NCBI GenBank assembly: GCA_044368575.1
Contig: JBIPPH010000007.1
Location: 1,180-65,179 of the forward strand
Length of the DNA: 64,000 nucleotides
DNA from: Bacteroidia bacterium
GTDB lineage: Bacteria; Bacteroidota; Bacteroidia; NS11-12g; UBA955
Direction: 5' to 3'
This document shows, one piece after another, positions 3,906 through 51,614 of the stretch. Numbering within the stretch: position 1 is the first letter of the stretch; the number at the start of each line of letters is the position of its first letter. The translations under genes were made by a program, and so were the position numbers. The notes under the pieces were generated by a model. That model searched no databases. It worked only from the letters and a program-made list of their open reading frames with translations, and was not told where the DNA came from.

Positions 3906-6324
3906 AAATACGCTTGACCCTTTGTGAAATGGAGGTTAATACCTCATAAGGAATACTGTGTAATTGATCAGCAACTGCTTGAATAGGATAATCTTTACCA
4001 AACAAAATGGCTTCGTCACCAATTGCACAATCAATGCCAGTAACATCTATCATACACATATCCATACAAACATTGCCAACAATCGGCGCTTTTTGGCCTT
4101 TGATATAAAAACAACCTACACCATTACTTAATGCCCTGTTAAGCCCATCGGCATAACCCAATGCCAATACAGCAATAACTCGAGCGGTATTTGCTATGGC
4201 TTTTCGCGCATAGCCAACACTCTCATTAGGAGCTATGGTTTTAATCTGTGAAATATGAGATTTGAAAGTAAAAACTGGCTCCAATAAATGACCAAATAAA
4301 TGGGTAGGATCAATGCCATACAAACCAATGCCAATACGCACCATATTCAGGCCTTCTTGCTGAAAGCGTAGGGCGGCAGCTGTATTGCTGATATGTTTAA
4401 TCGTGTTAATTTGCAATGCTGCTTCAATCGTGTTGGCCCAAGTTTTAAAACGCTCAAATTGCAATTGAGTAAAGGCATCGTGTTCAGCTTCATCACTTGC
4501 AGATAAATGCGAAAAAATGGAGGCCACTTGAATAGATGTATGCGATTTTAAAAAGGCAATTAAAGGCTTGATTTGATCTTCTACAAATCCCAAACGGTGC
4601 ATGCCAGTATCCAATTCGATGTGGATTTTAATTGGGTTTTGAGTGGCATTATTAAACTGTTGGAGTTGCTCTAAATCGAAGACTACAGGTTCAAGCTGAT
4701 GCGTCATTAAAGCCTCCAGTTGATCAACATCTGCATTCATCACCATGATGGGTGCTACAACCCCTGATTGCCTCAATGCGACGCCTTCATCAGTGTAGGC
4801 TACAGCCAAATAATCTACTCGTTTTTCAATCAATTTAGCCATCTCGTAAGTACCACTGCCATAAGCAAACGCCTTTACCATAGCCATGATTTTCATGTCA
4901 TTCGGCAATTTGTTTTTAAACACATTTAAATTGTTAATGGCCGCATTTAAATTGATTTCAAGCACAGTATTGTGGTTATCCTTTTCAAGCTTTTTAACAA
5001 TGTGCTCAAACTCAAATTTGCGAGCACCTTTAATCAATATGCTTTCATCTTTAAAACTCATTTCATAAAAATGAGCCAAAAAGCTTGCTGTGTCAGGAAA
5101 GAAGGCAGCATCAAAAGTTTGCTTGAACAGTTTAGGGCCGTATTTATTGTATTGAGAACCAATGCCTATAACACGCTTAATCCCTTTATCGATAAGCATT
5201 TGCTTAACTTGAGTATATAGAATTTCTGGCGGTATACCAGAGCCTTCAATATCAGATAAGATAGCCGTTTTATTGGCGTGCATGGCCTGTTGTTTTAAAA
5301 ACGAAAGGGCATTGCTTAAGGCATTTAAATCATTGTTGTAACCATCGTTTACCAGTACACATTGGTGTATGCCTTTTTTTAATTCCATGCGCATACTCAC
5401 AGCTCTAAGCTGTTCAAAAGTACTGGCATCAAAAGCGTCAAAATGATTCATGACGAGGCAACACAGGCATGCATTTTCAATGGAGGCAGCATCTTTAAAT
5501 GGTAAATTAAACTGTAAGTCTTTGCCTTTGTATTGCCCGAATATTTTGCTGTGTTTTTCAGTTTGAACACAATCTATAATATTCAAATCGGCTTTAGGTT
5601 CATTGAATCCAAAGCTGATAAGTTTTTGGCCCAACAAGGCTTTGGTATGAGGCAAGTATTGAGCAAATACCAATTGACAATTATTAAACAGTCTTAATTT
5701 TTCTTGGAGTTTTTGTTCAGGACTATCAAACCCCTCATTGTGAGCCGGTCCTAAATGGGTTAATATGCCATAGCTAGGGTCAATGATATCAGCAAGTTGC
5801 TGCATCTCGCCTGTGGTTGAAATCCCTGCTTCAAAGATTCCCAATTCATGCGATTCGTTTAATTGCCATACACTCAGAGGCACACCAATTTGACTGTTGT
5901 AACTTTTAGGATTGGCGCATACGCTTTTACTGTGGCCAAATAATTGCAACAACCATTCCTTGACAACAGTTTTGCCATTGCTGCCAGTAATGCCAATTAC
6001 CGGTAAATTGAATTGGTGTCTGTGGTAGTTAGATAAGGCTTGAAGCGCTTTTAAGGTATTGTCAACTTTTAAAAACACTAAATCTTGTTGTTCTGGTGTT
6101 TTAAAATCAGCATTGACTACAAACCATTTTACCCCTTTTTCAATCAATTCAGGGATGTATTTATGCCCATCATTGACAGCAGTTTTCAAAGCAAAAAACA
6201 ATGCATCATGAGCAGTAGTAAGGGCTCTTGAATCGGTTAATAATTTAATAGACGCTCGAACATCATCATTTCCTTGCACCTGCGCATGGATGATTTTTGC
6301 GATATCATTAAGTGAATACGTCAA
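3892..6324 (-). CDS. murF: Bifunctional UDP-N-acetylmuramoyl-tripeptide--D-alanyl-D-alanine ligase (MurF) / alanine racemase (Alr)
   Basis: 810 aa. The N-terminal half has the Mur ligase P-loop GITGSNGKTVVKEW. The C-terminal half has the alanine racemase PLP-lysine motif VKAFAYGSG and an LAVAYTDEGVALRQ block. The fusion is typical of Bacteroidota. Confidence 0.85.
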   Translation of the reverse strand: MTYSLNDIAKIIHAQVQGNDDVRASIKLLTDSRALTTAHDALFFALKTAVNDGHKYIPELIEKGVKWFVVNADFKTPEQQDLVFLKVDNTLKALQALSNYHRHQFNLPVIGITGSNGKTVVKEWLLQLFGHSKSVCANPKSYNSQIGVPLSVWQLNESHELGIFEAGISTTGEMQQLADIIDPSYGILTHLGPAHNEGFDSPEQKLQEKLRLFNNCQLVFAQYLPHTKALLGQKLISFGFNEPKADLNIIDCVQTEKHSKIFGQYKGKDLQFNLPFKDAASIENACLCCLVMNHFDAFDASTFEQLRAVSMRMELKKGIHQCVLVNDGYNNDLNALSNALSFLKQQAMHANKTAILSDIEGSGIPPEILYTQVKQMLIDKGIKRVIGIGSQYNKYGPKLFKQTFDAAFFPDTASFLAHFYEMSFKDESILIKGARKFEFEHIVKKLEKDNHNTVLEINLNAAINNLNVFKNKLPNDMKIMAMVKAFAYGSGTYEMAKLIEKRVDYLAVAYTDEGVALRQSGVVAPIMVMNADVDQLEALMTHQLEPVVFDLEQLQQFNNATQNPIKIHIELDTGMHRLGFVEDQIKPLIAFLKSHTSIQVASIFSHLSASDEAEHDAFTQLQFERFKTWANTIEAALQINTIKHISNTAAALRFQQEGLNMVRIGIGLYGIDPTHLFGHLLEPVFTFKSHISQIKTIAPNESVGYARKAIANTARVIAVLALGYADGLNRALSNGVGCFYIKGQKAPIVGNVCMDMCMIDVTGIDCAIGDEAILFGKDYPIQAVADQLHSIPYEVLTSISQRVKRIYVSE

Positions 6325-14537: not shown

Positions 14538-16232
14538 TTAAACACTGGTAATGGCGTTTATAACGCCCTCAAGTGTTAATTGAATGAACACATTTCTGAA
14601 CCTTAGAGACCAAAGGGCAAAAATCACTAATCCAGTCAATAGACTTATAATAAGGCCTTTGCTAAACAAAGGATTTTGATAGCTTAAACTGCCTTTCCCT
14701 GAGGCTTGCTGTATGGCCAATAAGCCATTGTGATTGGTTAATTTACCCTGGCCTTTCAGTTGCCATTGAGATTGGTAACGCATATTCAATATTACCATAG
14801 AATCTGTGGCAGTGTAGTCTATTTTCTTAGGGCTAAATGATTGAAGACTTGCTCCGGAAATGAAGGTGTTTAGGGTGTCGCCCACTGGTTTTAAGTGCAA
14901 AGGCTCATACGCATTGACAACGAAATTTTGCTGCTGAATTTGTGGAAACATCAAGTCCTTTTCGGTTTTCAATTTAACCACTGCGTGTTTAGACTGCACA
15001 CTGGCAATAGTCTCTATTCTTGGGCTAAAAACCATGCCATTGCTGATAGAAAAATAATTTAAACCTTGGCTCAAAGTAAAACCAATTAAAATAATGTAAA
15101 TCAGTTTTTTATCATGGTATAACGATAGGGTTTTAACACAGAGGACTGCGCCAGCAAATAAACTGATTAATCCGATGCGATAAGGGGCTCGAATACCATC
15201 AAAAATACCGACAAAATGATGCAAAACGTACCAAGGATTCACCATGCTCGGAAAATTGCCTAAATTGATCCATACTACCGCAATTGAAAGTATCAACCAT
15301 GTTTTAAAGCCTTTAATGGCTTTGATTTTATACAAGGCTAAGAGTATAAGTATGAGTGGAAATCCGATACTGATTTCATGCCATTGATGAGGGGTTTTGC
15401 TGTCTATAGGGTAATCTAACCAAGCGCATAGCCAAACCAAAGGAGATATACTGCTATCATCAGTTACCAATCTGGGTTGGGTTTGCCATAAATCCATGGC
15501 GGGTATAATCTTCCAGGCGTTTAATAACAAGGCCACCACAAAGGCAAAACACATATACAGTAACCATTTGCTTTTAACGGTTTTATTCAACCACAAACCA
15601 ATGCTCCACAAACACAAACTCAATACAATGAAGATGAATATTAAAGGCGCACCGCCAGCTATCGGTAAGGCTAATATCAAACTGCCTTTTATCCAGGCAT
15701 TGAATTTCCCAGATTGTTTAAACACATCAAACCAATAGAAACACCATGGTAACCAATAAGCATGCATAAAATTAGAATGCCCAGCCTCCCAAATATGCCT
15801 GCTAAAGTATGAGGCGCTTAGGGTAATTAAACTCATGCAAAGGTTAATGAATTGATCTGATTGCAAACGATTAAACCATTTGAAAAAGCCCCAGAAGCCA
15901 ATCAACATAGATAGGAATACACTGAACTTCAATCCGTAAAATGTGCCCAATAACAAAACAGGAATAAAGTAAATGGAAACCACTACAGACTGTGGGTTGG
16001 CATCCATATCGCTACCAAAGGCTGCATAAGGCTGATAACTCGGCCATTGATGGTAATCAACAATGCTTGACCTTGCCATTTCAAAGGTTGAATAGGTTAG
16101 ATCCCAGTCACCTTTGCCATAAAATCCCCATTGACGCGGCACAATCAAATTGCTGATCAAAAGGCACCAAAGCAGGGCAATGGCCCAAATCTTTGCCTTT
16201 GAATCTATGGCTTTGTGAATGCGCTCAATCAT
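14538..16232 (-). CDS. Polytopic integral membrane protein, function unknown (possibly GT-C-like)
   Basis: 564 aa with more than 10 hydrophobic helices, followed by a hydrophilic C-terminal domain of about 150 aa. No diagnostic motif recognised. Confidence 0.55.
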   Translation of the reverse strand: MIERIHKAIDSKAKIWAIALLWCLLISNLIVPRQWGFYGKGDWDLTYSTFEMARSSIVDYHQWPSYQPYAAFGSDMDANPQSVVVSIYFIPVLLLGTFYGLKFSVFLSMLIGFWGFFKWFNRLQSDQFINLCMSLITLSASYFSRHIWEAGHSNFMHAYWLPWCFYWFDVFKQSGKFNAWIKGSLILALPIAGGAPLIFIFIVLSLCLWSIGLWLNKTVKSKWLLYMCFAFVVALLLNAWKIIPAMDLWQTQPRLVTDDSSISPLVWLCAWLDYPIDSKTPHQWHEISIGFPLILILLALYKIKAIKGFKTWLILSIAVVWINLGNFPSMVNPWYVLHHFVGIFDGIRAPYRIGLISLFAGAVLCVKTLSLYHDKKLIYIILIGFTLSQGLNYFSISNGMVFSPRIETIASVQSKHAVVKLKTEKDLMFPQIQQQNFVVNAYEPLHLKPVGDTLNTFISGASLQSFSPKKIDYTATDSMVILNMRYQSQWQLKGQGKLTNHNGLLAIQQASGKGSLSYQNPLFSKGLIISLLTGLVIFALWSLRFRNVFIQLTLEGVINAITSV

Positions 16233-25986: not shown

Positions 25987-26348
25987 ATGTAGTATTGGTA
26001 TTTTTAGGCGGCGGTATTGGTGCAGTTTTGCGCTGGTTAATACAATTGTTATTGGGCAAATCTGATGGCAATGGCTTTGCTTGGGCTACCTTTACTGTAA
26101 ATTGTTTTGGCAGTTTATTGATTGGTCTTTTAGCTGCCCTTGCCTTAAAATTTAAGTGGTCGGAGGCCAGTGTACTCTTGTTAATGACTGGTGTTTTGGG
26201 TGGTTTTACTACTTACTCTGCCTTTGCAATGGATAGCCTTCAAATGCTGAAACAACAGCAGTGGGCATTGGCTATTCAATACATGCTTTCAACCAATATT
26301 ATGGCCTTGCTTTGTTGTGCTTTAGGATTTTATCTGGTTAAACTATGA
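25983..26348 (+). CDS. crcB: Fluoride ion channel CrcB/FluC
   Basis: 121 aa with 4 TMs. GGGIGAVLRW and GFTTYSAF motifs. Confidence 0.8.
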   Translation: MNVVLVFLGGGIGAVLRWLIQLLLGKSDGNGFAWATFTVNCFGSLLIGLLAALALKFKWSEASVLLLMTGVLGGFTTYSAFAMDSLQMLKQQQWALAIQYMLSTNIMALLCCALGFYLVKL

Positions 26349-27610
26349 GGTATTTAAAATTATATGGTCTATTGCTTTGCTTGTTTTGGACAACAAGTGC
26401 ATTTGCTTTAAAGATCATTTTACCCATGGATGTTACACAAAAAAACCATTTAAAAGCTTATGGGCTTACTTATTGGGTCTTGAACAAAGGGGCGGAAGCT
26501 GATTGGTTGTTGAATTACCAAGGTGGCAGCTTCATGTTTGACTTTGATGTGCTATACGAAAATGAATGTAAAATCAGAGGCGTTAGCTATGAAGTTATTA
26601 CAGAAAGCAAAGCCAATAGCATTGTTGCAGAGGTCATCAATCCTGAAGTCAATATGGAGGATGTTAAGTTGCTGAAGGCGCCTAAAATTGCAGTCTATAC
26701 TCCTAAGAACAAACAACCGTGGGACGATGCTGTAACCATGGTACTTGAGTACGCTGAAATTCCTTATGAAAAGGTTTTTGATGATGAAGTCTTAGAAGAT
26801 AAACTACTCACTTATGATTGGTTGCATTTGCACCATGAGGATTTTACAGGTCAATACGGCAAGTTTTGGTACAGCCATAGAAACACTGCTTGGTATGCTG
26901 AAGATGTTAGAACCAATGAGGCTTGTGCTGCTAAACACGGCTTTAGTAAAGTGTCTCAATTGAAATTATCTGTGGCCAAAAAAATCAGAGACTTTTGTTT
27001 GGGTGGTGGATTTTTGTTTGCTATGTGCAGCGCTACAGACACCTATGACATAGCTCTTGCCGCTGATGGCATCGATATTTGTGAATCCATGTTCGACGGC
27101 GATGGCATGGATCCTGAAGCCCAAGAAAAATTGAATTTTAAAAACACATTTGCCTTTAAAGACTTTTCGCTTGAGACCAGTCCAATAGCTTATGAGCACG
27201 CCAGTATTGATAATACCTTGGCTCATCAATCGGTTTTAGAAAACAACGATGTATTTACCCTATTTGATTTCAGTGCTAAGTGGGATGTTGTGCCATCTAT
27301 GTTGTGTCAGAATCACACCCAAACCATTAAGGGCTTTATGGGTCAAACCACTGCCTTTAAAAAGCAGTTCATTAAAAGTGAAGTTTTGATTTTAGGCGAA
27401 AATAAAACCCTGAATGAAGCCCGCTACATACATGGTAATATGGGCAAGGGCACTTGGACGTTTTACAGTGGACATGATCCGGAAGATTACCAGCATTTAA
27501 TCAACGAACCGCCAACCAATTTGGCATTGTTTCCAAATAGTCCCGGATTTAGATTAATTTTGAACAATATTCTTTTTCCAAGTGCTAAAAAGAAAAAACT
27601 AAAAACGTGA
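26345..27610 (+). CDS. Secreted hypothetical protein; possibly a class I glutamine-amidotransferase-like (DJ-1/ThuA-like) fold
   Basis: 421 aa with a signal peptide. Candidate nucleophile elbow GGGFLFAMCSATD. The fold assignment is weak. Confidence 0.5.
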   Translation: MRYLKLYGLLLCLFWTTSAFALKIILPMDVTQKNHLKAYGLTYWVLNKGAEADWLLNYQGGSFMFDFDVLYENECKIRGVSYEVITESKANSIVAEVINPEVNMEDVKLLKAPKIAVYTPKNKQPWDDAVTMVLEYAEIPYEKVFDDEVLEDKLLTYDWLHLHHEDFTGQYGKFWYSHRNTAWYAEDVRTNEACAAKHGFSKVSQLKLSVAKKIRDFCLGGGFLFAMCSATDTYDIALAADGIDICESMFDGDGMDPEAQEKLNFKNTFAFKDFSLETSPIAYEHASIDNTLAHQSVLENNDVFTLFDFSAKWDVVPSMLCQNHTQTIKGFMGQTTAFKKQFIKSEVLILGENKTLNEARYIHGNMGKGTWTFYSGHDPEDYQHLINEPPTNLALFPNSPGFRLILNNILFPSAKKKKLKT

Positions 27611-27611
27611 T

Positions 27612-27836
27612 ATGCCTATTCAACTTTTTAAAACGGTAATTGAAAAAACTGCCTATGGGGTTTGTACCAAGATAGGCGACAAAATAGGAATTGGCACAAA
27701 GCGCATTCGTTTGTTTTTTATTTATACAAGCTTTTTAACTTTGGGTTCACCCATCATCATTTACATGATTTTGGCGTTTTGGATGAATATGAAAAACTAC
27801 GTCAAAGAGAAGCGCAATGCAGTCTGGGATTTATAG
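27612..27836 (+). CDS. PspC-domain membrane protein
   Basis: 74 aa. N-terminal YGVCTKIGDKIGIGTKRIRLFFI matches the PspC domain consensus, followed by a TM helix. Confidence 0.55.
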   Translation: MPIQLFKTVIEKTAYGVCTKIGDKIGIGTKRIRLFFIYTSFLTLGSPIIIYMILAFWMNMKNYVKEKRNAVWDL

Positions 27837-28448
27837 TCAGACAATTTCAACTTTACTGATACCACTTACTCTGTATTCTTTGTTACTTGGCTGTTCGAAG
27901 CATTGAAACCAAGTTCTCAATTGTTTACCTTTTTTAAATATCCTGCCGGTTTCAAGTTTAAATAAACTGCCTTCTGGAATTTGTTCGAGTAATAGTTTAG
28001 CATCTTTATCATATTTAGCTAATACCTTCATAAGGTTTTTGTCGCTACAACTACTGGCCTTTAAATGATTGGTATAACTGTGTAATGCTTGCTGAATATC
28101 GTTTGGCAATTGGTGGTGCAAGACAATTGGTTTCAACAACTCACTAAAACAGGCCTTCCATTCTTTGCCATGGGGATCAATGGTGTTGCGGTATTGTTCA
28201 AACGCAATTAGATGCGCAATTTCATGCAATAAGGTAGTTAAAAAGGCGTAAGGATTTAAGTCTTTGTTAACGGTTATGCGATGGTAGTTGTCGTGTTTAT
28301 GAGGAGAGCGGTAATCGCCAAACTTACTGCTGCGCGGCTTATTTAATTTTAATTGAACCTTGTGTTGAATCATTAACTCTACTACATAAGTAGCAGTGCC
28401 TTCTGGCAAATACTGAGATAATTTTTCAATCAGTTCGGATTTTGTCAC
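27837..28448 (-). CDS. SprT-like zinc metalloprotease family protein
   Basis: HExxH in LLHEIAHLIAFEQY and a KFGDYR block typical of the SprT-like family. GTG start. Confidence 0.65.
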   Translation of the reverse strand: MTKSELIEKLSQYLPEGTATYVVELMIQHKVQLKLNKPRSSKFGDYRSPHKHDNYHRITVNKDLNPYAFLTTLLHEIAHLIAFEQYRNTIDPHGKEWKACFSELLKPIVLHHQLPNDIQQALHSYTNHLKASSCSDKNLMKVLAKYDKDAKLLLEQIPEGSLFKLETGRIFKKGKQLRTWFQCFEQPSNKEYRVSGISKVEIV

Positions 28449-28451
28449 ACC

Positions 28452-29036
28452 CTAGGAGCGGTTAAAAGTAGTTTGATAAGCTTGATATACTTCTTCAAGT
28501 TCTGCATACCAGGCCTCGCCAAATCTTCTGATCAATGGCGCTTTTAAAAATTGAAAGACAGATACATTGTTGGCTTTTCCCAATGTACATGCAGCCGAGC
28601 ATATATCCCATTCGTGGTAATTCACAGTAACCATATCATTGATTTGACCCAATCTAATAGGGTATAAATGACAACTGATCGGTTTGTTAATAGATATGGC
28701 GCCACTGTTGTAGGCCTTTTCAATGGCGCAGCCTAATTGACCATTCTCTCTGTATACAAAAACACATTCACCGGTTTCCAAACAAGTTGTTGCGGCATCA
28801 TCTATTTCTAATCCTTCATGAAAGCCTATTGCATTATAAAGTGCAATGCCTTTTGGATCCATAAATGGTTTGATCTGTTCAATCTCAGACTCAATGGCTT
28901 CTATCTCTGCTAGTTCAATAGGAGCACCTCTATCACCTTCAATACAACATGCGCCTTTACAAGCGTCTAAATTGCATATAAACTTTTGTGTAAAGACCTC
29001 ATCAGACACTAAGGTGTCTTGAATCTCTAATATCAT
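28452..29036 (-). CDS. Cys-rich DUF3109-like protein
   Basis: 194 aa with a CKGACCIEGDRG cluster plus four further conserved Cys. This family is restricted to Bacteroidota. Assigned from memory, moderate confidence. Confidence 0.5.
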   Translation of the reverse strand: MILEIQDTLVSDEVFTQKFICNLDACKGACCIEGDRGAPIELAEIEAIESEIEQIKPFMDPKGIALYNAIGFHEGLEIDDAATTCLETGECVFVYRENGQLGCAIEKAYNSGAISINKPISCHLYPIRLGQINDMVTVNYHEWDICSAACTLGKANNVSVFQFLKAPLIRRFGEAWYAELEEVYQAYQTTFNRS

Positions 29037-29545
29037 TTTTGTTCGAGGTAGTTTTTGAATCCTTTGTCTTCAAGTGCGGTTGCTTTGTTAAGCACCTCAT
29101 GCTCTTGATTTTTCATAAAGTTACTAATGCTCGCCCATACTTCAGGCTTGCCTACAGCAACGATTTTAGCGGCATATAAACCTGCGTTTTTAGCGCCGTT
29201 AATAGCCATAGTACCCACCGGAATACCAGGAGGCATTTGAACGATGCTGTATAATGAATCAACACCAGATAGGTTAGAAGATTTAATTGGTACACCAATT
29301 ACAGGGAGTTCAGTCATGCTAGCTGCCATGCCTGGTAAATGGGCTGCGCCACCTGCACCCGCAATGATACATGAGTAACCGTTGGCTTTGGCATTACTTG
29401 CACTTTCAAACAATCTGTTCGGTGTTCTGTGGGCGCTTACAATGGTTAAATCATAAGTGATTTTAAATTGATCTAAGATTTCAGCGGCTTCTTTCATCAC
29501 TGGAAGATCGCTGTCTGAGCCCATAATGATTAATACATCTTTCAT
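29033..29545 (-). CDS. purE: N5-carboxyaminoimidazole ribonucleotide mutase
   Basis: KDVLIIMGSDSDLPVM and GAGGAAHLPGM signature. Confidence 0.95.
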   Translation of the reverse strand: MKDVLIIMGSDSDLPVMKEAAEILDQFKITYDLTIVSAHRTPNRLFESASNAKANGYSCIIAGAGGAAHLPGMAASMTELPVIGVPIKSSNLSGVDSLYSIVQMPPGIPVGTMAINGAKNAGLYAAKIVAVGKPEVWASISNFMKNQEHEVLNKATALEDKGFKNYLEQK

Positions 29546-29583
29546 GCCTATTGATGGATTTATGTTTACAAAGATAGCGGAAA

Positions 29584-30747
29584 TTAAGCATTTGGAGCAG
29601 CAGCTCGCATGCCTAAATACTGTTTTATGGTTTTGAGTTTGTTTAACACAGCCTCTAAATCTTCACCCATAATGGTAATATGACCCATTTTACGCATAGG
29701 TTTAGTTTCTGCTTTATTGTATAGATGCACAAACACGCCTGGCATTGGTAGAATATGTTCTAAGCCGGTTAATTCATAAGGGCCATTCACAGATTCAAAG
29801 CCTAAAATATTCATCATAGCCGCTGCTTGAATCAAGCTTGTATCGCCCAAGGGCATGCCCAATAAAATCCTGTTCAATTGTTCGTATTGACTGGTGTAAC
29901 AGGCTTCAATTGTATGGTGGCCACTGTTGTGCGGTCTTGGTGCAATTTCATTCACTAAAATTTGACCATCTTGACTTAAAAACATTTCAACGGCAAAGAT
30001 GCCAACCCCATTAAGGCATTCTATACATTTTTGAGCTATGGCTTTGGCTGTCTGCTCTGTCGCTTCACTGATATTCGCCGGTGCAAATAAGATATCTACT
30101 AAATTGGCTTTAGGATCAAAGGCCATTTCAACTGTAGGGAAAGTGCAGATTTCGCCCTGCTCATTTCTGGCAACTATCACAGATAATTCTATGGCATTCT
30201 CAACAAATTCTTCAAGCACTACTGCACCTTCAAATGGTATTTTACCGTGTTGTTCAATATCAACCTTATTCACCAATTCAACGCCTTTGCCATCGTAGCC
30301 ACCTTTTCGGAGTTTGGCAGCCACTTTATGCCCTTTCAAAGCTGGTAATTTTGCGGCCCATTCACTTGCATTGTCAACCAATTCAAAAGGACTGCTCGGA
30401 ATGTTATTGGCTTTGAAAAACAATTTCTGTAAACCTTTGTCTTGAATGATGCTTAGTATTTTAGGCGATGGAATGATTTTATGTCCTTGCGCCTCAAGTT
30501 CAAGCAAAGCCTCTACATTAATGTGTTCGATTTCATAGGTTAAAACATCAGACTGCAAAGCCAATGCTTTTATTTTTTCAGCATCTTGCAGAGACCCAAC
30601 AATATGCTGATTGGCAATGTCTTTAGCCGGGGCATTGTCCATTTCTAAAATGGTGTAATGAATGTTCCATGGTTGGCCTGCTTCAATGAGCATTTTGCCC
30701 AATTGTCCGCCACCAATAATGCCTATAGAAGTTTTAGAGGGTAACAT
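29584..30747 (-). CDS. purK: N5-carboxyaminoimidazole ribonucleotide synthase
   Basis: GIIGGGQLGKML N-terminus, ATP-grasp motifs, and a location just upstream of purE. Confidence 0.9.
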   Translation of the reverse strand: MLPSKTSIGIIGGGQLGKMLIEAGQPWNIHYTILEMDNAPAKDIANQHIVGSLQDAEKIKALALQSDVLTYEIEHINVEALLELEAQGHKIIPSPKILSIIQDKGLQKLFFKANNIPSSPFELVDNASEWAAKLPALKGHKVAAKLRKGGYDGKGVELVNKVDIEQHGKIPFEGAVVLEEFVENAIELSVIVARNEQGEICTFPTVEMAFDPKANLVDILFAPANISEATEQTAKAIAQKCIECLNGVGIFAVEMFLSQDGQILVNEIAPRPHNSGHHTIEACYTSQYEQLNRILLGMPLGDTSLIQAAAMMNILGFESVNGPYELTGLEHILPMPGVFVHLYNKAETKPMRKMGHITIMGEDLEAVLNKLKTIKQYLGMRAAAPNA

Positions 30748-30770
30748 GAATGTGCAGCAAAAATAACCTT

Positions 30771-32204
30771 TTATTGTTTTGGTAGAATCTGATACAGGTA
30801 ATTTTCTCCATATAAACTTTCAAAGGAGTCTACAGCTTGCAATGTATGGTGTTCAAACACTTGTGTTTTTTGATCAAGCCAGGCAGCCCTTGACCACTTA
30901 CTCATGCGATACCCATAATCTGTATAAGCCTTGTTGTTTGAAGTACTATCTATACCATCAAACGCGGTTATGGGATGTAATTTATAAGTGTGATGGAATC
31001 CAAATTTTTCACAGAGTCTATTGTCAATCAAAGGTTTTTGGGTTAAATAATAATCAGCTTGCGGCGCTCGCTCAATAAAATTAATGATCTGAGCAATCGG
31101 TTGTGTATTCAAAAAAGCGTTGGGCCACAAACCAAAAACAGTGTTCCAGGTTAATAACCCAATGATCAGCATGGTATGGCTTTGACTTATTGGAGCGTCA
31201 AAGTGTTGAACCAGGTAAAAGACAAATAGGCAAGGCAACATGGCTAAAAATTCTGCATTGCCATCAGATACAAATGCAAATAATATATGCAATACTATGG
31301 CGATCACAATCCAAGGTCTACTTATATGCTCTGTCTTATTTTTATGCGTTGACTTCAGTATTTTAATGCTGTTAATGCCGATTGCGGTCAAGGCTGGTAA
31401 AGCAATACAGGCTAAGCCGGCATGTTGTTCTAGAATAGTCCAAATAAGCCCGTGAATCTGAATAAATGATCTTACACAATTAATGCCTGTTAGGGCCAAG
31501 TTATTCATCGACCAATGGATATGGGCGTGCTCATTTAAATACTCACCCAATACCAAAGATTGAAGTGTCCATGCATTCGAAAAATAAGCGACTAAAGCAT
31601 AGGAGAGGGGCACCAATGTCAATCCTAATACAAAGGCAAGACTTTTCTTTGTTAGGCCATCTGCATACAAGGTAGTGCTCAATAGGGCCAAGGTCCACCA
31701 AATTTGAACCTGATGCAACAGTATACTCATACTGCATAGAAGACCTGTCACCAACAAATAAAGGAATGGTCTGTTCTGCTGTTTATCATAGTAATAGGTT
31801 GCCAGCAAACTAAAGCAAATGGGTAAAATATAAGTTTCAGCAGAGCTGGCAAATCGCATCATTGAAAAACAAGCGCCTACAAAGGCCATAGATACAAGCG
31901 CTGTTTTGTAGGACTTCCCCCACTGCAACAAAATGGCGTATACCGTGTATAGTGCAACGCCCGCGCCTAAACTATTTAACAATTGAATGCTTCTGAGTGG
32001 AGCAATGGGTAGTTTTATAAAGCATAAGCATTTCCAAAAACACCATTGAACGGCATTGAACAATAAATGATGCGCTTGCCAAATTTGATCTTGATGTTTT
32101 ATGCTGGCCGCGTAAAACCAAGCATCAATACCCTCGTTTTGATTGGCAAATATCCCATACAGGATTGCAAAACCAATTGCCAATATTAAGGGTAGGGGTT
32201 TCAT
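30771..32204 (-). CDS. 12-TM integral membrane protein of unknown function, translationally coupled to the GGGPS-family gene
   Basis: 477 aa, highly hydrophobic. Its ATG overlaps the TAA of the upstream pcrB-like gene (TAATG at 32202-32206). Confidence 0.6.
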   Translation of the reverse strand: MKPLPLILAIGFAILYGIFANQNEGIDAWFYAASIKHQDQIWQAHHLLFNAVQWCFWKCLCFIKLPIAPLRSIQLLNSLGAGVALYTVYAILLQWGKSYKTALVSMAFVGACFSMMRFASSAETYILPICFSLLATYYYDKQQNRPFLYLLVTGLLCSMSILLHQVQIWWTLALLSTTLYADGLTKKSLAFVLGLTLVPLSYALVAYFSNAWTLQSLVLGEYLNEHAHIHWSMNNLALTGINCVRSFIQIHGLIWTILEQHAGLACIALPALTAIGINSIKILKSTHKNKTEHISRPWIVIAIVLHILFAFVSDGNAEFLAMLPCLFVFYLVQHFDAPISQSHTMLIIGLLTWNTVFGLWPNAFLNTQPIAQIINFIERAPQADYYLTQKPLIDNRLCEKFGFHHTYKLHPITAFDGIDSTSNNKAYTDYGYRMSKWSRAAWLDQKTQVFEHHTLQAVDSFESLYGENYLYQILPKQ

Positions 32205-32947
32205 TAAGCAATCGAATCAATCAATGCTTGTTTAGCGTTCGCAATACTTTGAATCAATTGGTGATTGTCTTCTACACCATTACCTATCACTAAAACATCG
32301 GCACCAGCTTTATATAGTTGAATAGCTGTTTCTGCGCTACGAATACCACCGCCAATAATCAAAGGTAAACCTGTGTTTTGTTTAACTTTTTCAATCATTT
32401 TTGGTGCAATTGGTGCAAAGGCGCCACTGCCGGCATCCATGTATATACATTGCATGCCCAACATTTTACCCGCTAGAGCAGTTGCTACTGCAATATTGTA
32501 TTTGTCTGCAGGAATTGGTTTGGTATTGCTCATATAGCTTACACTGGTTTCTCTTCCGCCATCTATCAATAGATAAGCGGTAGGCAGAATATCCAAATTG
32601 GTTTGAGCCAAATATGGAGCAGCCACTACTTGTTTGCCAATTAAATATTCTGGATTGCGACCACTCAATAAAGATAAAAAGAGAATACCATCTGCATTGG
32701 GGTCAACCATCATCTCATTCCCAGGAAATAAATACACCAATCCTTTATAATAGGTTTTGATGGTTTGTATACACTTGGTCAATTGATTGCCTCCCACCAA
32801 GCTGCCACCTACAAAAATAAAATCCACTTGATTGTCTGCACAGAGTTGTGCAATATTTGCTACAGCTTCTGCGTTTTGATCTGGGTCAATTAATATGGCC
32901 AGTGATTTTTTTAGTGATGCTTGTACTTCCAATAAAAATGTTTTCAT
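32204..32947 (-). CDS. Geranylgeranylglyceryl/heptaprenylglyceryl phosphate synthase family protein (PcrB/GGGPS)
   Basis: C-terminal phosphate-binding block PLIIGGGIRSAETAIQLYKAGADVLVIGN and the (beta/alpha)8 GGGPS pattern. Start set at the MKTFLLEV ATG at 32947; the ORF-track extension to 33007 is probably spurious. Confidence 0.75.
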   Translation of the reverse strand: MKTFLLEVQASLKKSLAILIDPDQNAEAVANIAQLCADNQVDFIFVGGSLVGGNQLTKCIQTIKTYYKGLVYLFPGNEMMVDPNADGILFLSLLSGRNPEYLIGKQVVAAPYLAQTNLDILPTAYLLIDGGRETSVSYMSNTKPIPADKYNIAVATALAGKMLGMQCIYMDAGSGAFAPIAPKMIEKVKQNTGLPLIIGGGIRSAETAIQLYKAGADVLVIGNGVEDNHQLIQSIANAKQALIDSIA

Positions 32948-33196
32948 AAAACTCAGAAACACTATATTTAATGAGGGTAAAGGTAATGCAAAAAATGAAA
33001 ATATCAAGTAAATATTGGGCCTTTTTTGTTTTCAACATTGCCCTTATATAGAAGGATTGGGGTTTTACCAATTCTGTGGAAAAGTCCTTTTCATTTTCTA
33101 GTTTTAGTATGACTAGATTTGAAGGACTTCTTTGCAAAAAATGCATCGAAGTCATTTTTGTTTTTACAACTATTTATACAATAACAACTACCATAT

Positions 33197-36100
33197 ATGC
33201 AGCCAAATTTTGACCAAATGAAGAAGGGCCTCAAGTTCACCAGGCTCAACACAAAGGAGAATGTGTCTCCTTTCGATCAGTTTACTTACGAGTACCGCAC
33301 ATCGGTGATTAAAAACCCTACCGGTGATGTTGTATTTGAAATGAAGAACGTAGAGATTCCTAGTAGCTGGAGTCAAGTAGCAACAGACATCGTTGCTCAA
33401 AAATATTTTAGAAAAGCTGGGGTACCTCAAGCAGACGGAACGCTTGGTGGCGAAACCAGTGTTAAACAAGTAGCTCATCGTTTAGCTGACTGTTGGAGAC
33501 AATGGGGCGAAAAGTATGGTTACTTTGCATCTACAGAGGATGCTCAAATTTTTTATGAAGAATTGGTGTACTCTATTTTGGCTCAACAGTCTGCACCAAA
33601 CTCTCCACAATGGTTCAATACAGGTTTGCACAGCACATATGGTATTACTGGCAAACCACAAGGACACTATTACGTAGACCCTGACACTGAAAAGTTGATG
33701 CGTTCTACATCTGCATATGAAAGACCACAACCACATGCTTGTTTTATATTATCAGTTGATGACGACTTAGTGAACGAAGGCGGTATCATGGATTTATGGG
33801 TACGTGAAGCAAGAATTTTTAAATATGGTAGCGGTGTTGGTACTAACTTCTCTAGAATCAGAGGTGCTGGTGAAAAATTATCAGGTGGTGGAACATCATC
33901 TGGCTTAATGTCATTCCTTAAAATTGGTGACAGAGCAGCTGGTGCTATCAAATCTGGTGGTACTACAAGAAGAGCAGCTAAAATGGTTTGCTTGGATTTA
34001 GATCACCCTGAAATCATGAACTTCGTTAACTGGAAAAAGCATGAAGAGCGCAAAGTTGCTGCTTTAATTGCTGCTGGTTACCCAAGCGATTATGAAGGCG
34101 AAGCATATGCAACTGTTTCTGGTCAAAACTCTAACAACTCAGTTCGTATTCCAAATAAATTCTTTGAAGCATTAAAACAAAATAGCAACTGGGATTTAAT
34201 TGGTAGAAGCAACAATCAACCAGTAGCCAGCTTGCCTGCTAAAGAAGTATGGGATGCAATCGGCGATGCTGCTTGGGCTTGTGCTGACCCTGGTGTACAA
34301 TACGATGATACCATCAACGAATGGCATACTTGTCCTGAAGGTGGTAGAATCAATGCTTCTAACCCATGTTCAGAATACATGTTCCTTGACAACACAGCTT
34401 GTAACTTAGCTTCATTGAATTTAATGAAATTCTTTGATGCTGATAAATTGGAATTTGATATCGTATCTTATGAATATGCTATCCGCTTATGGACAGTAGT
34501 ATTAGAAGTATCAGTATTGATGGCTCAGTTCCCTAGCCAAGAAGTGGCTCAATTGAGTTATGACTATAGAACTTTAGGTTTAGGTTATGCCAACTTAGGC
34601 GCCTTGTTAATGGTGTCTGGTATTCCTTATGATAGCCCTAAAGCATCTGCTATTTGTGGTGCTTTAACCTCTATCTTAACTGGTCAAGCATATGCTACAA
34701 GTGCTGAAATGGCTGCCGCTAAGGGTCCATTCAGAATGTATGAAAAGAACAAAAAGCACATGATGCGTGTAATGCGTAACCACCGTTATGCTGCCTATAA
34801 CACACCATTGGCTTACGAAGGATTAAGCGTACCAGCAGTTGGTATCGATCCTCAATACTGTCCAGAGGATTTGTTAAGATCAGCTTGCAATGCATGGGAT
34901 AAAGCTTTAATGTTCGGTGAAAAATTTGGTTACAGAAATGCTCAATCAACAGTAATCGCACCAACAGGTACTATTGGTTTAGTAATGGATTGTGATACCA
35001 CTGGTATTGAACCTGACTTCGCCTTGGTTAAATTCAAAAAATTAAGTGGTGGTGGTTATTTCAAAATCATCAACCAAGCTGTACCTGCAGCCTTAAAAAC
35101 TTTGGGTTACACTACTGAAGAATCTGAAGCCATCATCAATTATGCTAAAGGTCACGCAACACTTAAAAATGCCCCTTTCATTAACCATGAAACATTGGCA
35201 GCAAAAGGCTTTACTGCTAAAGACATCGAATTAATTGAAAGCCAATTAGAGCGTGCATTTGATATTGATTTCGTATTCAACGTATTCACTCTAGGCGAAG
35301 AGACTATTAGCCGTTTAGGTTTCTCTGAAGCACAATACAATGAAAATAGCTTCAACTTGTTAAGAGCACTTGGCTTTAAAGCTGCCGAAATTGAAGCTGC
35401 TAACGAATACGTTACTGGTACTATGACCATCGAAGGTGCACCATTCTTAAAAGAAGAGCACTACCCAGTGTTTGATACTGCTAATAAGTGTGGCAATAAA
35501 GGAACTCGTTTCTTACATGCACATTCTCACATCAGAATGATGGCTGCTGCTCAACCATTCATTTCAGGTGCCATTTCTAAAACCATCAATTTGCCAAATG
35601 AGGCTTCAGTTGAAGACATCAAATCTTGCTACGAATTGAGCTGGAGATTAGGCTTAAAAGCCAATGCATTGTACAGAGATGGTTGTAAATTATCTCAACC
35701 ATTGTCAAACAAATCTGATAAGAAGGTTGAAGAATCTACTCCAGTGAGCGATACAGTTGAAGCTGTTGAAAAAGCAGTAGGCGTATCAGGTAGCACTCGT
35801 GTAGAAGATTTGACGCCAGAAATCGTATTAGAAGCCGCTCGTTTAATCATTAACAGCAGCAATAACCAAGCTTTCAAACAACAGTTGTCAAATATTGCTA
35901 CTCGTAAAGTATTGCCAAACAAACGCAAAGGCTTTACGCAAAAATCAAAAATTGATGGCAACACAGTTTTTGTTAGAACTGGTGAATACGAAGATGGCAC
36001 ATTAGGTGAAGTATTCATTGATATGCACAAAGAAGGCGCTAGCTTCCGTTCATTGATGAACTGTTTTGCTATTGCTGTATCAATCGGTTTACAGTACGGT

Positions 36101-36517
36101 GTTCCATTGGAAGAGTACTACGACAAGTTCACATTCAGCAGATTTGAACCAAGTGGTATGGTTGAAGGTCACGCCAACATCAAATCATCAACTTCAGTGG
36201 TTGACTATATTTTCAGATTGTTAGGTTTTGAATACTTAGACCGTCAAGAAGCATTACACATTAAACCAAAAGTAGTTGATGAAGTAACGCCAGTTGACAC
36301 CAATTACAACTTAGCTCAAAACGAAATTGCACCTGTTGTTGTTGAAGCCAGTGTTGCGATTCCATCTGCAGCTACTTCACCAAAAGCAGTTAAGAAAACC
36401 AATTTGCCTCCTAGTATGGGCGATGCCCCAGCATGTAAGAGCTGCGGAAACATCACCGTAAGATCAGGCACTTGTTATACCTGTTTGACTTGTGGTACTA
36501 CTAGCGGATGTAGCTAA
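33197..36517 (+). CDS. nrdJ: Adenosylcobalamin-dependent ribonucleotide reductase (class II, NrdJ)
   Basis: 1106 aa. Active-site NPCSEYMFLDNTACNLASLNL block and a C-terminal Zn-ribbon CKSCG...CYTCLTCG. Confidence 0.85.
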   Translation: MQPNFDQMKKGLKFTRLNTKENVSPFDQFTYEYRTSVIKNPTGDVVFEMKNVEIPSSWSQVATDIVAQKYFRKAGVPQADGTLGGETSVKQVAHRLADCWRQWGEKYGYFASTEDAQIFYEELVYSILAQQSAPNSPQWFNTGLHSTYGITGKPQGHYYVDPDTEKLMRSTSAYERPQPHACFILSVDDDLVNEGGIMDLWVREARIFKYGSGVGTNFSRIRGAGEKLSGGGTSSGLMSFLKIGDRAAGAIKSGGTTRRAAKMVCLDLDHPEIMNFVNWKKHEERKVAALIAAGYPSDYEGEAYATVSGQNSNNSVRIPNKFFEALKQNSNWDLIGRSNNQPVASLPAKEVWDAIGDAAWACADPGVQYDDTINEWHTCPEGGRINASNPCSEYMFLDNTACNLASLNLMKFFDADKLEFDIVSYEYAIRLWTVVLEVSVLMAQFPSQEVAQLSYDYRTLGLGYANLGALLMVSGIPYDSPKASAICGALTSILTGQAYATSAEMAAAKGPFRMYEKNKKHMMRVMRNHRYAAYNTPLAYEGLSVPAVGIDPQYCPEDLLRSACNAWDKALMFGEKFGYRNAQSTVIAPTGTIGLVMDCDTTGIEPDFALVKFKKLSGGGYFKIINQAVPAALKTLGYTTEESEAIINYAKGHATLKNAPFINHETLAAKGFTAKDIELIESQLERAFDIDFVFNVFTLGEETISRLGFSEAQYNENSFNLLRALGFKAAEIEAANEYVTGTMTIEGAPFLKEEHYPVFDTANKCGNKGTRFLHAHSHIRMMAAAQPFISGAISKTINLPNEASVEDIKSCYELSWRLGLKANALYRDGCKLSQPLSNKSDKKVEESTPVSDTVEAVEKAVGVSGSTRVEDLTPEIVLEAARLIINSSNNQAFKQQLSNIATRKVLPNKRKGFTQKSKIDGNTVFVRTGEYEDGTLGEVFIDMHKEGASFRSLMNCFAIAVSIGLQYGVPLEEYYDKFTFSRFEPSGMVEGHANIKSSTSVVDYIFRLLGFEYLDRQEALHIKPKVVDEVTPVDTNYNLAQNEIAPVVVEASVAIPSAATSPKAVKKTNLPPSMGDAPACKSCGNITVRSGTCYTCLTCGTTSGCS

Positions 36518-39115: not shown

Positions 39116-39964
39116 GTGAAACACCCAATACACATAGTCCGTCCGGTCAATTTATTACTGATTGTTTTTACCATGTTTGTAGTGGTTTTTAAATACCGCG
39201 ATGAAACAAATTCAGAGTATTGGCTTCAAGCCTTTTATTTAATTGCTGCAGCCACTTTAACTGCTGCGGCTGGTTATGTAATCAATGAGATCATGGATGT
39301 TGATACAGATGCCATCAATAAACCCAATGATTGTATAGTTGGAAAGTCTTTGTCCAAAACCAATGCTTGGCTATTGTATGGCTTATTATCTACAGTTTCG
39401 CTTTTTATTGCTTATTTATTCAGTGAGGTGTTTTTGATGCTGAATCTTTGTATAACGGTGATATTGTATCTATATGCCTATATGCTAAAAGGTATGCCAC
39501 TCATTGGCAATATAATGGTGGCAGTTTGTAGTGCCGCTGTAATTGCTTGTTGTATACTTTTGATTGCATTTGAAACTGAAGCGGCAGGCTTTAACTTTAT
39601 TGGCTACATCGTGTTTGCATTTGTTATCAGTTTAATCAGAGAAATCGTCAAAGACATTCAAGACATTGAGGGGGATCAAGCAGTTGGCCTCAAAACCTAT
39701 CCTATAGTATTTGGTATTACCGGCGCCAAAATCATGATTTATATTTTAACGGGCATTGAAATTGTTGTTTGTGCCCTGTATGCCTTTTTGGCTTGGGGTT
39801 TAGATTTGTATTTGGCTTCAATCTTCATGGGCCTTATAACAGTCTTACTTTTATTGTTCATTAATCATATTTCCAAAACCCATCAAAAACATGAGTTTCA
39901 AGTGTCAAGCAAATGGCTTAAATACATCATGTTTGCCGGTGTTATTACCTTGATTTTTGCCTAA
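39116..39964 (+). CDS. UbiA-family prenyltransferase (DGGGP-synthase-like)
   Basis: 282 aa with about 8 TMs. First Asp-rich motif NEIMDVDTDAINKPN, second DIQDIEGD. N-terminal RPVNLLLI. GTG start. Confidence 0.65.
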   Translation: MKHPIHIVRPVNLLLIVFTMFVVVFKYRDETNSEYWLQAFYLIAAATLTAAAGYVINEIMDVDTDAINKPNDCIVGKSLSKTNAWLLYGLLSTVSLFIAYLFSEVFLMLNLCITVILYLYAYMLKGMPLIGNIMVAVCSAAVIACCILLIAFETEAAGFNFIGYIVFAFVISLIREIVKDIQDIEGDQAVGLKTYPIVFGITGAKIMIYILTGIEIVVCALYAFLAWGLDLYLASIFMGLITVLLLLFINHISKTHQKHEFQVSSKWLKYIMFAGVITLIFA

Positions 39965-40551
39965 TGACTAATTCGTTTTTCACGCCACAATTATTTTTGG
40001 CCTCTAAAAGCCCAAGACGCAGACAATTGCTCGTTGATAGCGGGTTTAAAGTTGATTTTGTTGATATAGATGTCGAAGAAGATTTTAATGAACAACTCAA
40101 AGCGCAAGCTATACCAGAGTTTTTAGCAGTTAAAAAAAGCAGGGCCTTTGATCAAACACTTAAAGCCAATGAATTGTTAGTAACCGCTGATACTGTTGTT
40201 TGGATAAATGATCATGTATTGAACAAACCCAATACAATAACTGAAGCTAAAGCCATGCTTATGGAATTATCTGCTTCTAAACACACTGTTTATACGGCTG
40301 TTTGTGTAAGAACTGAGTCAAAGGAAATCGTTTTTTCTGAAGCAAGTGACGTGCATTTTAACGCGCTCAGCGAATCAATGATAGACTATTATTTAGATAC
40401 CTATTCTCCATTAGACAAAGCAGGCGCTTATGGTATTCAAGAGTTTATAGGTTATGTAGGCATTAAAAAAATAGAGGGCTGCTATTATAATGTGATGGGC
40501 TTTCCTGTGAGTCGATTTATCTCGGAACTCAGCCACCATGCTATCATTTAA
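39964..40551 (+). CDS. maf: Maf-family nucleoside triphosphate pyrophosphatase
   Basis: LASKSPRRRQLL N-terminal signature and a C-terminal AGAYGIQE block. Confidence 0.9.
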   Translation: MTNSFFTPQLFLASKSPRRRQLLVDSGFKVDFVDIDVEEDFNEQLKAQAIPEFLAVKKSRAFDQTLKANELLVTADTVVWINDHVLNKPNTITEAKAMLMELSASKHTVYTAVCVRTESKEIVFSEASDVHFNALSESMIDYYLDTYSPLDKAGAYGIQEFIGYVGIKKIEGCYYNVMGFPVSRFISELSHHAII

Positions 40552-50843: not shown

Positions 50844-51614
50844 TTATGCGTTTAAAAAGAAATTGAAACTATCGCCTCTAAGGCCTAAACGAAGGGTTTC
50901 TAATGCGATTAATTCAGTAGGAGCAATATTACCTAAGTTGATATTAGCACCATACAATTTAATGAACCATACTTGTTGGGCTTTCAATGGGGCTTCCCAA
51001 ATGATTTTCTCCAAAGGTATTTTTCTGATGATTTCAGCAACTAAGCCTGAACGCACTTCGCCAGAACCTCTAAAAACGCCAACAGTGCCACTTTCTCTGG
51101 CCTCTGCAATCACTTTCCAAACACCAGCTTGAATTTCCTTTTCCATCATATCTATCCATTCATATGGCGGAATGATTTTTTCTGCATCTTTAGATCCAAC
51201 TTCAGAAATAACTGTAAAATCTTTGGCTAAAGTTCTGATGTATTCGCACTTGTCTTCGTGGGCTATTTCCATTGAACCATCGCTCACTTCAACATGATCA
51301 ATGCCGAAGGTGTCTAGAACTCTTCTATAATCATCAAACTGATTTCTGATCGCATATGCTTCAAATAAGGTGCCGCCGAAATACACTTTAAATCCGGCAT
51401 CTTTATACAATTTGATCTTCTCTTTTAATTGTGGGGTAACGACAGCTGTGCCAAAACCTAATTTGAGTAAATCAATTAAGTGTTGTCCGTTTTCTATAAG
51501 TGCTTCAGCCTCTCTTAAACTTAGGCCTTTGTCCATTACCATGGTTAAACCACTTTCGCGAGGCTTAACAGTCCTGTCAGGTAAATTTGAAATATTAAAT
51601 ATATCCTTATTCAT
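50844..51614 (-). CDS. (2R)-phospho-3-sulfolactate synthase (ComA) family protein
   Basis: 256 aa. N-terminal PDRTVKPRESGLTMVMDKG matches the ComA-family opening block (KPR..GLT.V.DKG). TIM-barrel-like periodicity. Recognised from memory. Confidence 0.6.
   Translation of the reverse strand: MNKDIFNISNLPDRTVKPRESGLTMVMDKGLSLREAEALIENGQHLIDLLKLGFGTAVVTPQLKEKIKLYKDAGFKVYFGGTLFEAYAIRNQFDDYRRVLDTFGIDHVEVSDGSMEIAHEDKCEYIRTLAKDFTVISEVGSKDAEKIIPPYEWIDMMEKEIQAGVWKVIAEARESGTVGVFRGSGEVRSGLVAEIIRKIPLEKIIWEAPLKAQQVWFIKLYGANINLGNIAPTELIALETLRLGLRGDSFNFFLNA

Follow-up and report, generated by a model that had tools for sequence, protein, structure and literature searches.

The biological role of the products of bacterial geranylgeranylglyceryl phosphate synthase (GGGPS) and PcrB enzymes is still an open question (PMC7888582; PMC7852524; PMC9179154). 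The PcrB product of Bacillus subtilis is an archaeal-type monoether lipid of open function (PMC9179154), and Bacteroidetes enzymes of the group make geranylgeranylglyceryl phosphate (GGGP) from geranylgeranyl diphosphate and glycerol-1-phosphate in vitro (PMC7852524; PMC7888582). The digeranylgeranylglyceryl phosphate synthase (DGGGPS) family has already been proposed for the next step, and genomes from Fibrobacteres-Chlorobi-Bacteroidetes (FCB) bacteria are reported to hold close GGGPS and DGGGPS homologues together (PMC7852524). Villanueva et al. showed diether formation with the enzymes of Cloacimonetes (PMC7852524), which seem to be the only bacteria in which the two genes are truly co-localised (Villanueva et al., 2020, PMC7852524). 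Here we describe a GGGPS gene, and the gene for a 477-aa membrane protein that directly follows it, in a 64,000-nt stretch of contig JBIPPH010000007.1 from a Bacteroidia bacterium (the whole stretch is called the window below). An earlier, sequence-only reading of this DNA had made the membrane protein the prime candidate for the next step of ether-lipid synthesis. Our analysis suggests that the window probably holds an ordinary group II GGGPS beside a member of an unannotated family with the GT-C glycosyltransferase fold, juxtaposed in one lineage and not as a conserved functional pair, and that a UbiA-type prenyltransferase encoded elsewhere in the window is the candidate for processing GGGP.

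The assignment of the first protein to the GGGPS/PcrB family, made earlier from sequence, was borne out by PF01884 (E=5.8e-36, 124.5 bits against a cut-off of 23.9) and by two curated NCBIfam models, NF003198 (266.5 bits, cut-off 247) and TIGR01769 (186.8 bits, cut-off 161.55). The translation contains both motifs of the phosphate-binding block that had been singled out, GGGIRS and GADVLVIGN, and these are matched in the alignment by those of 4jej, the closest solved relative (E=6.9e-55, 189 bits, residues 5-231), which we take to be the GGGPS of Flavobacterium johnsoniae. Archaeal group II GGGPS enzymes came next, a score of 141 bits was obtained with 4mm1, and the GGGPS enzymes of Bacteroidetes fall in the same group. 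The heptaprenylglyceryl phosphate synthase (HepGPS) 3vzx, of the Bacillus PcrB type, was far behind (4.6e-7, 33 bits), and the HepGPS model NF003197 gave 34 bits against a cut-off of 260. By these comparisons, the window GGGPS is nearer to the C20-specific GGGPS type than to the Bacillus-type HepGPS. It shares with 4jej the (beta-alpha)8 domain of the PcrB family together with the phosphate-binding motifs, and differs in coming from another species. With B. subtilis PcrB it shares membership of PF01884, and no acetyltransferase resembling YvoF, the enzyme described for B. subtilis, lies near the window gene. The start codon with the best support is the ATG at 32947, which gives a protein of 247 aa; homologues are 245-251 aa long, and the alignments begin at about residue 5 of this form. 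The TTG at 33007 chosen earlier would give 267 aa, with a hydrophobic extension of 20 residues that is missing in homologues. As far as its homology tells, this is an archaeal-type enzyme of ether-lipid synthesis that is already known from bacteria, and an ordinary one for Bacteroidota.

The neighbour had been described as a polytopic membrane protein without a recognisable family. This holds at the level of sequence libraries, because searches of Pfam, NCBIfam and PDB sequences (the last with phmmer and hmmsearch) returned nothing meaningful. A word-indexed homologue search found three close relatives, which would have made the protein an orphan; that view was overturned by an exhaustive hidden Markov model (HMM) profile search, in which 631 cluster representatives were found at E<=1e-3, 241 of them at E<=1e-30. 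The relatives are nearly all full length (~480-510 aa), sampled members carry the NCBI/JGI label 'hypothetical protein', and the 477-aa open reading frame (ORF) is, on this homology, a real gene. In an alignment of 118 sequences, D27, H46, E123, Y125, H164, E318, F319 and N354 are invariant, and the family is marked by the conserved blocks PHHLLYN, MRFAxxxETY, LFHQIH and GNAEF. A scan with the family profile, using one genome per species, gave 273 relatives, and the best 80 of these loci were examined. All 80 are from Bacteroidota; the record titles name Bacteroidales, Chitinophagales and Cytophagales (Rufibacter, Sabulibacter), as well as metagenome-assembled genomes (MAGs) labelled Flavobacteriales, Sphingobacteriaceae and Saprospiraceae. 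Loci are numbered below with the prefix L. In the near-identical MAG Bacteroidota bacterium SFB_657D_100_53 (JAURIG01, 96-99% identity), the gene is disrupted or elongated (L003, 1146-2753), and a separate contig of 602 bp carries residues 201-400 of the protein (L005, 1-600), which is probably an assembly artefact.

Models built with AlphaFold2 depended on the depth of the alignment: the pLDDT (predicted local distance difference test) was 35 with 4 sequences and 95.2 with 118, the latter with a pTM (predicted template modelling score) of 0.94. When the model was compared with the PDB using Foldseek, the best 39 matches were all GT-C enzymes, 18 of them at E<=1e-3, with a probability of ~1.0 and TM-scores of 0.39-0.57, at a sequence identity to the solved GT-C enzymes of 10-13%. 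The matches included ALG12, PglB, ArnT, STT3, PMT4, ALG9, AftD, DPY19, AftB, ALG3, PimE and related proteins. The 477-aa protein is thus modelled with a GT-C glycosyltransferase fold; among the folds that had been put forward for a check of this kind (GT-C, CarS-like or phosphatase), the AlphaFold-Foldseek comparison returned GT-C. Neither the searches of Pfam, NCBIfam and PDB sequences nor that of the fold gave a match to UbiA/DGGGPS, CarS, a phosphatase or YvoF, and the sequence profiles likewise showed no similarity to PAP2 or CDP-alcohol transferase families. From the helices of the model and from hydropathy we infer about 11 transmembrane (TM) helices rather than the 12 counted earlier, a cytoplasmic N-terminus and a periplasmic C-terminal domain of ~110 aa; the earlier description of the protein as polytopic stands. 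D27, H45/H46, E123/Y125, H164, R245/Q249/H251 and N316/E318 lie in or beside predicted periplasmic loops, and the invariant D27 is placed where the helix after TM1 begins, within the first loop predicted to be outside.

This predicted layout, in which the first external loop carries a conserved acidic residue, is the GT-C pattern. The protein shares its overall fold with ArnT (GT83), PMT/PMT_2 (GT39), ALG9/ALG12 (GT22) and PglB/STT3 (GT66), and like them has a conserved acidic residue in the first extracytoplasmic loop and a polytopic module at the N-terminus, after which comes a C-terminal domain outside the cytoplasm. It differs from them in a motif set of its own, in the low identity given above and in having no CAZy family assigned. 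PF13231 (PMT_2) was weakly matched by 12 of 60 relatives (best E=1.5e-7; 15.8 bits for P0228). Since the window protein itself gave no PMT_2 match even at E<=1 (gathering score 26.1 bits), we placed it at the level of the superfamily, that is the fold, only; hhalign of the family profile against the PMT_2 protein encoded elsewhere in the window was not significant (probability 0.8%). We describe the protein as a member of a previously unannotated GT-C family, found so far in Bacteroidota only. By analogy with every characterised GT-C enzyme, the protein would most likely work on the periplasmic side of the inner membrane, where it would use a polyprenyl-phosphate-linked sugar donor and pass the sugar to an acceptor in the envelope, which may be a lipid, a glycan or a protein. 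No gene for a polyprenyl-phosphate sugar synthase or a GtrA-like protein is adjacent to the GT-C gene in the window.

Conservation of the pair was assessed in fetched flanks of up to 6 kb, with 70 loci evaluable for GGGPS (at least 800 nt upstream) and 73 for purK. GGGPS lies directly upstream of the GT-C gene in 14 of the 70 loci, all from one syntenic lineage, and was absent from the fetched flank in the other 56. purK is directly downstream of a family member in 22 of the 73 loci. The GT-C-purK arrangement is kept without an upstream GGGPS in seven loci, five of which have a gene for an Fe/Mn superoxide dismutase (SOD) upstream. At L088, where GGGPS is 65% identical to that of the window, the large ribonucleotide reductase (RNR) gene stays beside GGGPS; on the other side of GGGPS comes a convergent shikimate dehydrogenase-like gene, and the GT-C gene is absent. 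Where GGGPS is 54-58% identical, the genes around it are altogether different. Because the SOD-GT-C-purK loci and the RNR-GGGPS arrangement of L088 each lack the other partner, the break falls exactly between GGGPS and the GT-C gene, and two synteny blocks are seen, one consisting of RNR and GGGPS and the other of GT-C, purK, purE, DUF3109 and SprT. The adjacency would then be a lineage-specific meeting of these two blocks. About 20 kb around the pair is also syntenic in L092 and L093, and the adjacency therefore carries no signal beyond background synteny. The pair is thus not kept wherever the GT-C family or GGGPS occurs, as the sequence-only reading had asked to be checked, and since the two genes are neighbours in one lineage only, nothing suggests that the missing next step of the lipid pathway is carried out by the neighbour.

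Outside this lineage the neighbours of the GT-C family are heterogeneous, and include infB-nusA, gcvH, a Wzy_C/Wzz cluster and cdsA-psd. A polysaccharide cluster with Wzy_C, Wzz and flippase-like genes surrounds the family member in 5-6 Chitinophaga-like loci, cdsA-psd is found in three loci, and several Bacteroidales loci have gcvH upstream of the homologue with a convergent infB-nusA-rimP group facing it. When ORFs of 81 loci were clustered in search of a conserved partner, no neighbour outside the purK lineage was found in more than 8 loci. At the Bacteroidales loci L025, L034, L038, L072 and L077, gcvH and a gene for a very large protein (~1030-1790 aa as called) lie upstream of the GT-C homologue; by eye, we take the large protein to be SprA. 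At L038 a PMT_2-type GT-C gene is directly upstream of the homologue.

In the window, the genes from GGGPS to the SprT-like gene form an array that lies entirely on the minus strand. The TAATG overlap of the GGGPS stop with the start of the membrane protein, noted earlier, was confirmed in the sequence, with one base common to the TAA (32206-32204) and the ATG (32204-32202). The statement that the pair runs on into purK-purE is likewise correct, as purK begins 23 nt after the GT-C gene and is followed by purE. The further claim that coupling is specific to the first two genes does not hold, as purE and DUF3109 overlap by 4 nt. The gaps along the array are -1 nt (GGGPS/GT-C), 23 nt (GT-C/purK), 38 nt (purK/purE), -4 nt (purE/DUF3109) and 3 nt (DUF3109/SprT-like), and close spacing, with one more stop/start overlap, marks the functionally mixed array as a whole and is not peculiar to its first pair. 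A scan of 27500-33300 for sigma-70 promoters and terminators found sites no more often than in shuffled sequence; because Bacteroidota promoters fall outside such a scan, the limits of the transcription unit are inferred from gene spacing.

A candidate for the step after GGGPS, missed by the earlier reading, is encoded by the UbiA-type gene at 39116-39964. The protein scored 102.3 bits against PF01040 (cut-off 34.2), and its translation contains the first Asp-rich motif, NEIMDVDTD. The best NCBIfam models were of the DGGGPS type, NF009513 (164 bits, cut-off 288) and NF009512 (147 bits, cut-off 278), followed at a wide distance by ChlG at 59 bits. We call the protein DGGGPS-like and not DGGGPS because these scores lie below the equivalog cut-offs. 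The best PDB sequence was the DGGGPS of M. jannaschii (6m31, E=4.8e-11), and homologues in cultured Flavobacterium, Pontibacter and Hymenobacter carry the NCBI name 'geranylgeranylglycerol-phosphate geranylgeranyltransferase'. L092 and L093 have the gene in a syntenic position. On this homology, GGGP may be processed by the DGGGPS-like prenyltransferase. As in Ca. Cloacimonetes, an FCB bacterium here encodes both GGGPS and a DGGGPS-like UbiA protein; unlike the co-localised pair of Ca. Cloacimonetes, the window genes lie on opposite strands at a distance of 6.2 kb, with RNR, peptidase and rhomboid genes between them, and the prenyltransferase scores below the cut-offs for DGGGPS. The window fits the picture drawn for FCB bacteria, with GGGPS and a DGGGPS-like gene in the same syntenic region and not in one operon. 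The stop codon of the UbiA gene overlaps the start of a Maf gene (39964-40551) by one base.

Several observations weigh against the reading of GGGPS and GT-C as a chance pair, and bear on whether the GT-C enzyme might instead give rise to a glyco-ether lipid at the periplasmic face, by glycosylating either dephosphorylated geranylgeranylglycerol or a diether that the DGGGPS-like enzyme has produced, with an operon link that is functional in this lineage. In 17 related paired loci (14 that the genome scan gave, two duplicate fetches and L089) the two genes overlap or are no more than ~12 nt apart; by gene calls, the distance is wider in L094 (43 nt) and in L095 (165 nt). The two genes stay together even as the GT-C protein diverges much faster than its neighbours: in the paired loci L006-L032 it is 31-37% identical to that of the window, compared with 62-70% for GGGPS, 64-74% for purK and 87-92% for RNR. 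These data leave room for some selection for co-expression of GGGPS and GT-C. Glycosylation of a prenyl ether is chemically conceivable, since some GT-C enzymes use lipid acceptors (ArnT and PimE are among the structural matches), and the same syntenic block holds the DGGGPS-like gene less than 7 kb away. The assessment of co-conservation itself drew on flanks of up to 6 kb, and the suggestion that D27 is the counterpart of the catalytic Asp of GT-C enzymes comes from secondary structure, not from residue-level superposition. We nevertheless consider a glyco-ether product quite improbable, given that 56 of 70 GT-C loci have no GGGPS in their flanks, that the synteny break lies precisely between the two genes (in the five SOD loci and at L088), that purK, purE, DUF3109 and SprT are packed equally tightly in the same array, and that the GGGPS genes of other Bacteroidota lineages have no GT-C neighbour.

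The functions first proposed for the membrane protein fare worse. That it is a GGGP phosphatase, a second prenyltransferase, a CarS-like enzyme or a head-group transferase is suggested by its adjacency to GGGPS only, and is extremely unlikely: the confident model matches GT-C glycosyltransferases and nothing else, none of the corresponding families shows similarity to it, and a separate DGGGPS-type UbiA gene is present in the window. A role in dephosphorylation, CarS-type chemistry or second prenylation is contradicted by the fold, as is head-group transfer. Membership of a well-known superfamily, together with adjacency in 14 of 70 loci and the GGGPS genes of other lineages that lack this neighbour, argues against the protein as prime candidate for the next lipid step. 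The proposal had also leaned on Bacillus, where the genes that process the heptaprenylglyceryl phosphate (HepGP) product were said to lie beside pcrB. This premise is probably wrong: HepGP-processing enzymes of Bacillus are not known to be encoded beside pcrB, which (as yerE) sits with pcrA-ligA, with yvoF elsewhere on the chromosome. YvoF is described without an operon link (PMC9179154). The GT-C family could alternatively be a housekeeping envelope glycosyltransferase across Bacteroidota, acting as the O-oligosaccharyltransferase (O-OTase) of general O-glycosylation or as a modifier of lipopolysaccharide or lipid A. Its presence in Bacteroidales, Cytophagales, Chitinophagales and Flavobacteriales-labelled genomes, with the best 80 loci all from Bacteroidota, its fold with a periplasmic C-terminal domain and its position inside the Wzy_C/Wzz/flippase-like cluster of 5-6 loci are in keeping with this. 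Known bacterial O-OTases are of the Wzy_C-type PglL/PilO family and not GT-C, the gene neighbourhood is heterogeneous, nothing in our analysis links the family to an O-OTase, and B. fragilis, T. forsythia and P. gingivalis, for which O-glycosylation is proven, are not among the best 80 of the 273 loci. Although the O-OTase of Bacteroidota was still unidentified in 2022 (PMC8729774), we regard such a role as very unlikely. Taking the two bolder possibilities together, an important envelope role of the family, be it glycosylation of a GGGPS/DGGGPS-derived ether lipid in this lineage or phylum-wide O-glycosylation as an oligosaccharyltransferase, seems unlikely. The lineage-specific juxtaposition of an ordinary GGGPS and a GT-C family member is the reading that we prefer.

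Table. Positions and supporting evidence for the genes and junction discussed in the window, and for the PF03706 genes of related loci.
Feature	Position	Strand	Evidence and remarks
GGGPS (group II geranylgeranylglyceryl phosphate synthase), 247 aa	32204..32947	-	PF01884, NF003198, TIGR01769; first gene of array
477-aa membrane protein, GT-C-fold family	30771..32204	-	AlphaFold2 model and Foldseek; no Pfam/NCBIfam match
TAATG stop/start overlap, GGGPS/GT-C gene	32202..32206	-	sequence read directly
purK	29584..30747	-	TIGR01161, 375.8 bits; 23 nt downstream of GT-C gene
purE	29033..29545	-	PF00731, E=1.4e-64; TIGR01162, 211 bits
DUF3109 protein	28452..29036	-	PF11307, E=2.2e-67; 4-nt overlap with purE
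SprT-like metalloprotease	27837..28448	-	PF10263, E=6.9e-9; end of co-directional array
Large ribonucleotide reductase (RNR)	33197..36517	+	divergent from GGGPS; Ribonuc_red_2_N, Ribonuc_red_lgC and TSCPD domains in orthologues
DGGGPS-like UbiA prenyltransferase	39116..39964	+	PF01040, NCBIfam DGGGPS-type models; outside operon, 6.2 kb from GGGPS
PF03706 gene, L083	11563-12585		
PF03706 gene, L084, L085, L086, L087	9733-10758		
PF03706 gene, L091	8735-9739		

A different arrangement was observed in another Bacteroidota lineage, around the GGGPS genes of L084-L087, L090 and L091 (~4280-6020; 55-57% identical to the window GGGPS). Two small ORFs precede GGGPS there, one of ~133 aa that resembles PF07332 (holin_3_6) and one of ~126 aa without a family, which runs into the start of GGGPS. 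The trio is kept in all six loci and may hold a more interesting partner of GGGPS than the GT-C gene. In two lineages a flippase-like gene (PF03706, LPG_synthase_TM) lies 3-5 kb from GGGPS, which may be coincidence; at L083 it adjoins a GT2 glycosyltransferase gene.

Elsewhere in the window, a second and conventional GT-C enzyme is encoded at 2415-3905 (minus strand; PF13231 PMT_2, 64.7 bits; PF02366 PMT, 55.3 bits), and the 3' end of its gene overlaps the beginning of an ORF (3892-5805) that encodes Mur-ligase and alanine-racemase domains. A predicted membrane protein of 564 aa (14538-16232, minus strand) matches nothing in Pfam or NCBIfam. Another protein that matches no family, of 421 aa and with an N-terminus like a signal peptide (26345-27610, plus strand), is kept in syntenic relatives (ORF cluster f6, 14 loci). 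ComA, (2R)-phospho-3-sulfolactate synthase, better known from the archaeal biosynthesis of coenzyme M, is encoded at 50844-51614 (minus strand; PF02679, E=1.6e-92). No tRNA or Rfam features were found in the 64-kb window.

The locus presents a known enzyme beside a new and uncharacterised GT-C superfamily member, the two being brought together by lineage-specific synteny within an array of mixed housekeeping genes. What becomes of GGGP in Bacteroidota, and what it does there, is an open question (PMC7888582), and for that reason any partner gene conserved with GGGPS would have offered a useful lead. The GGGPS/GT-C pair is no such lead, its adjacency being confined to one lineage and not above background synteny. 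What remains is the GT-C family itself, with 631 representatives, so far from Bacteroidota only, which now has a confident fold assignment and a set of invariant residues and makes a reasonable target for glycobiology. A genome with GGGPS and a DGGGPS-like prenyltransferase, for its part, fits the published idea that FCB bacteria may make archaeal-type diether lipids.

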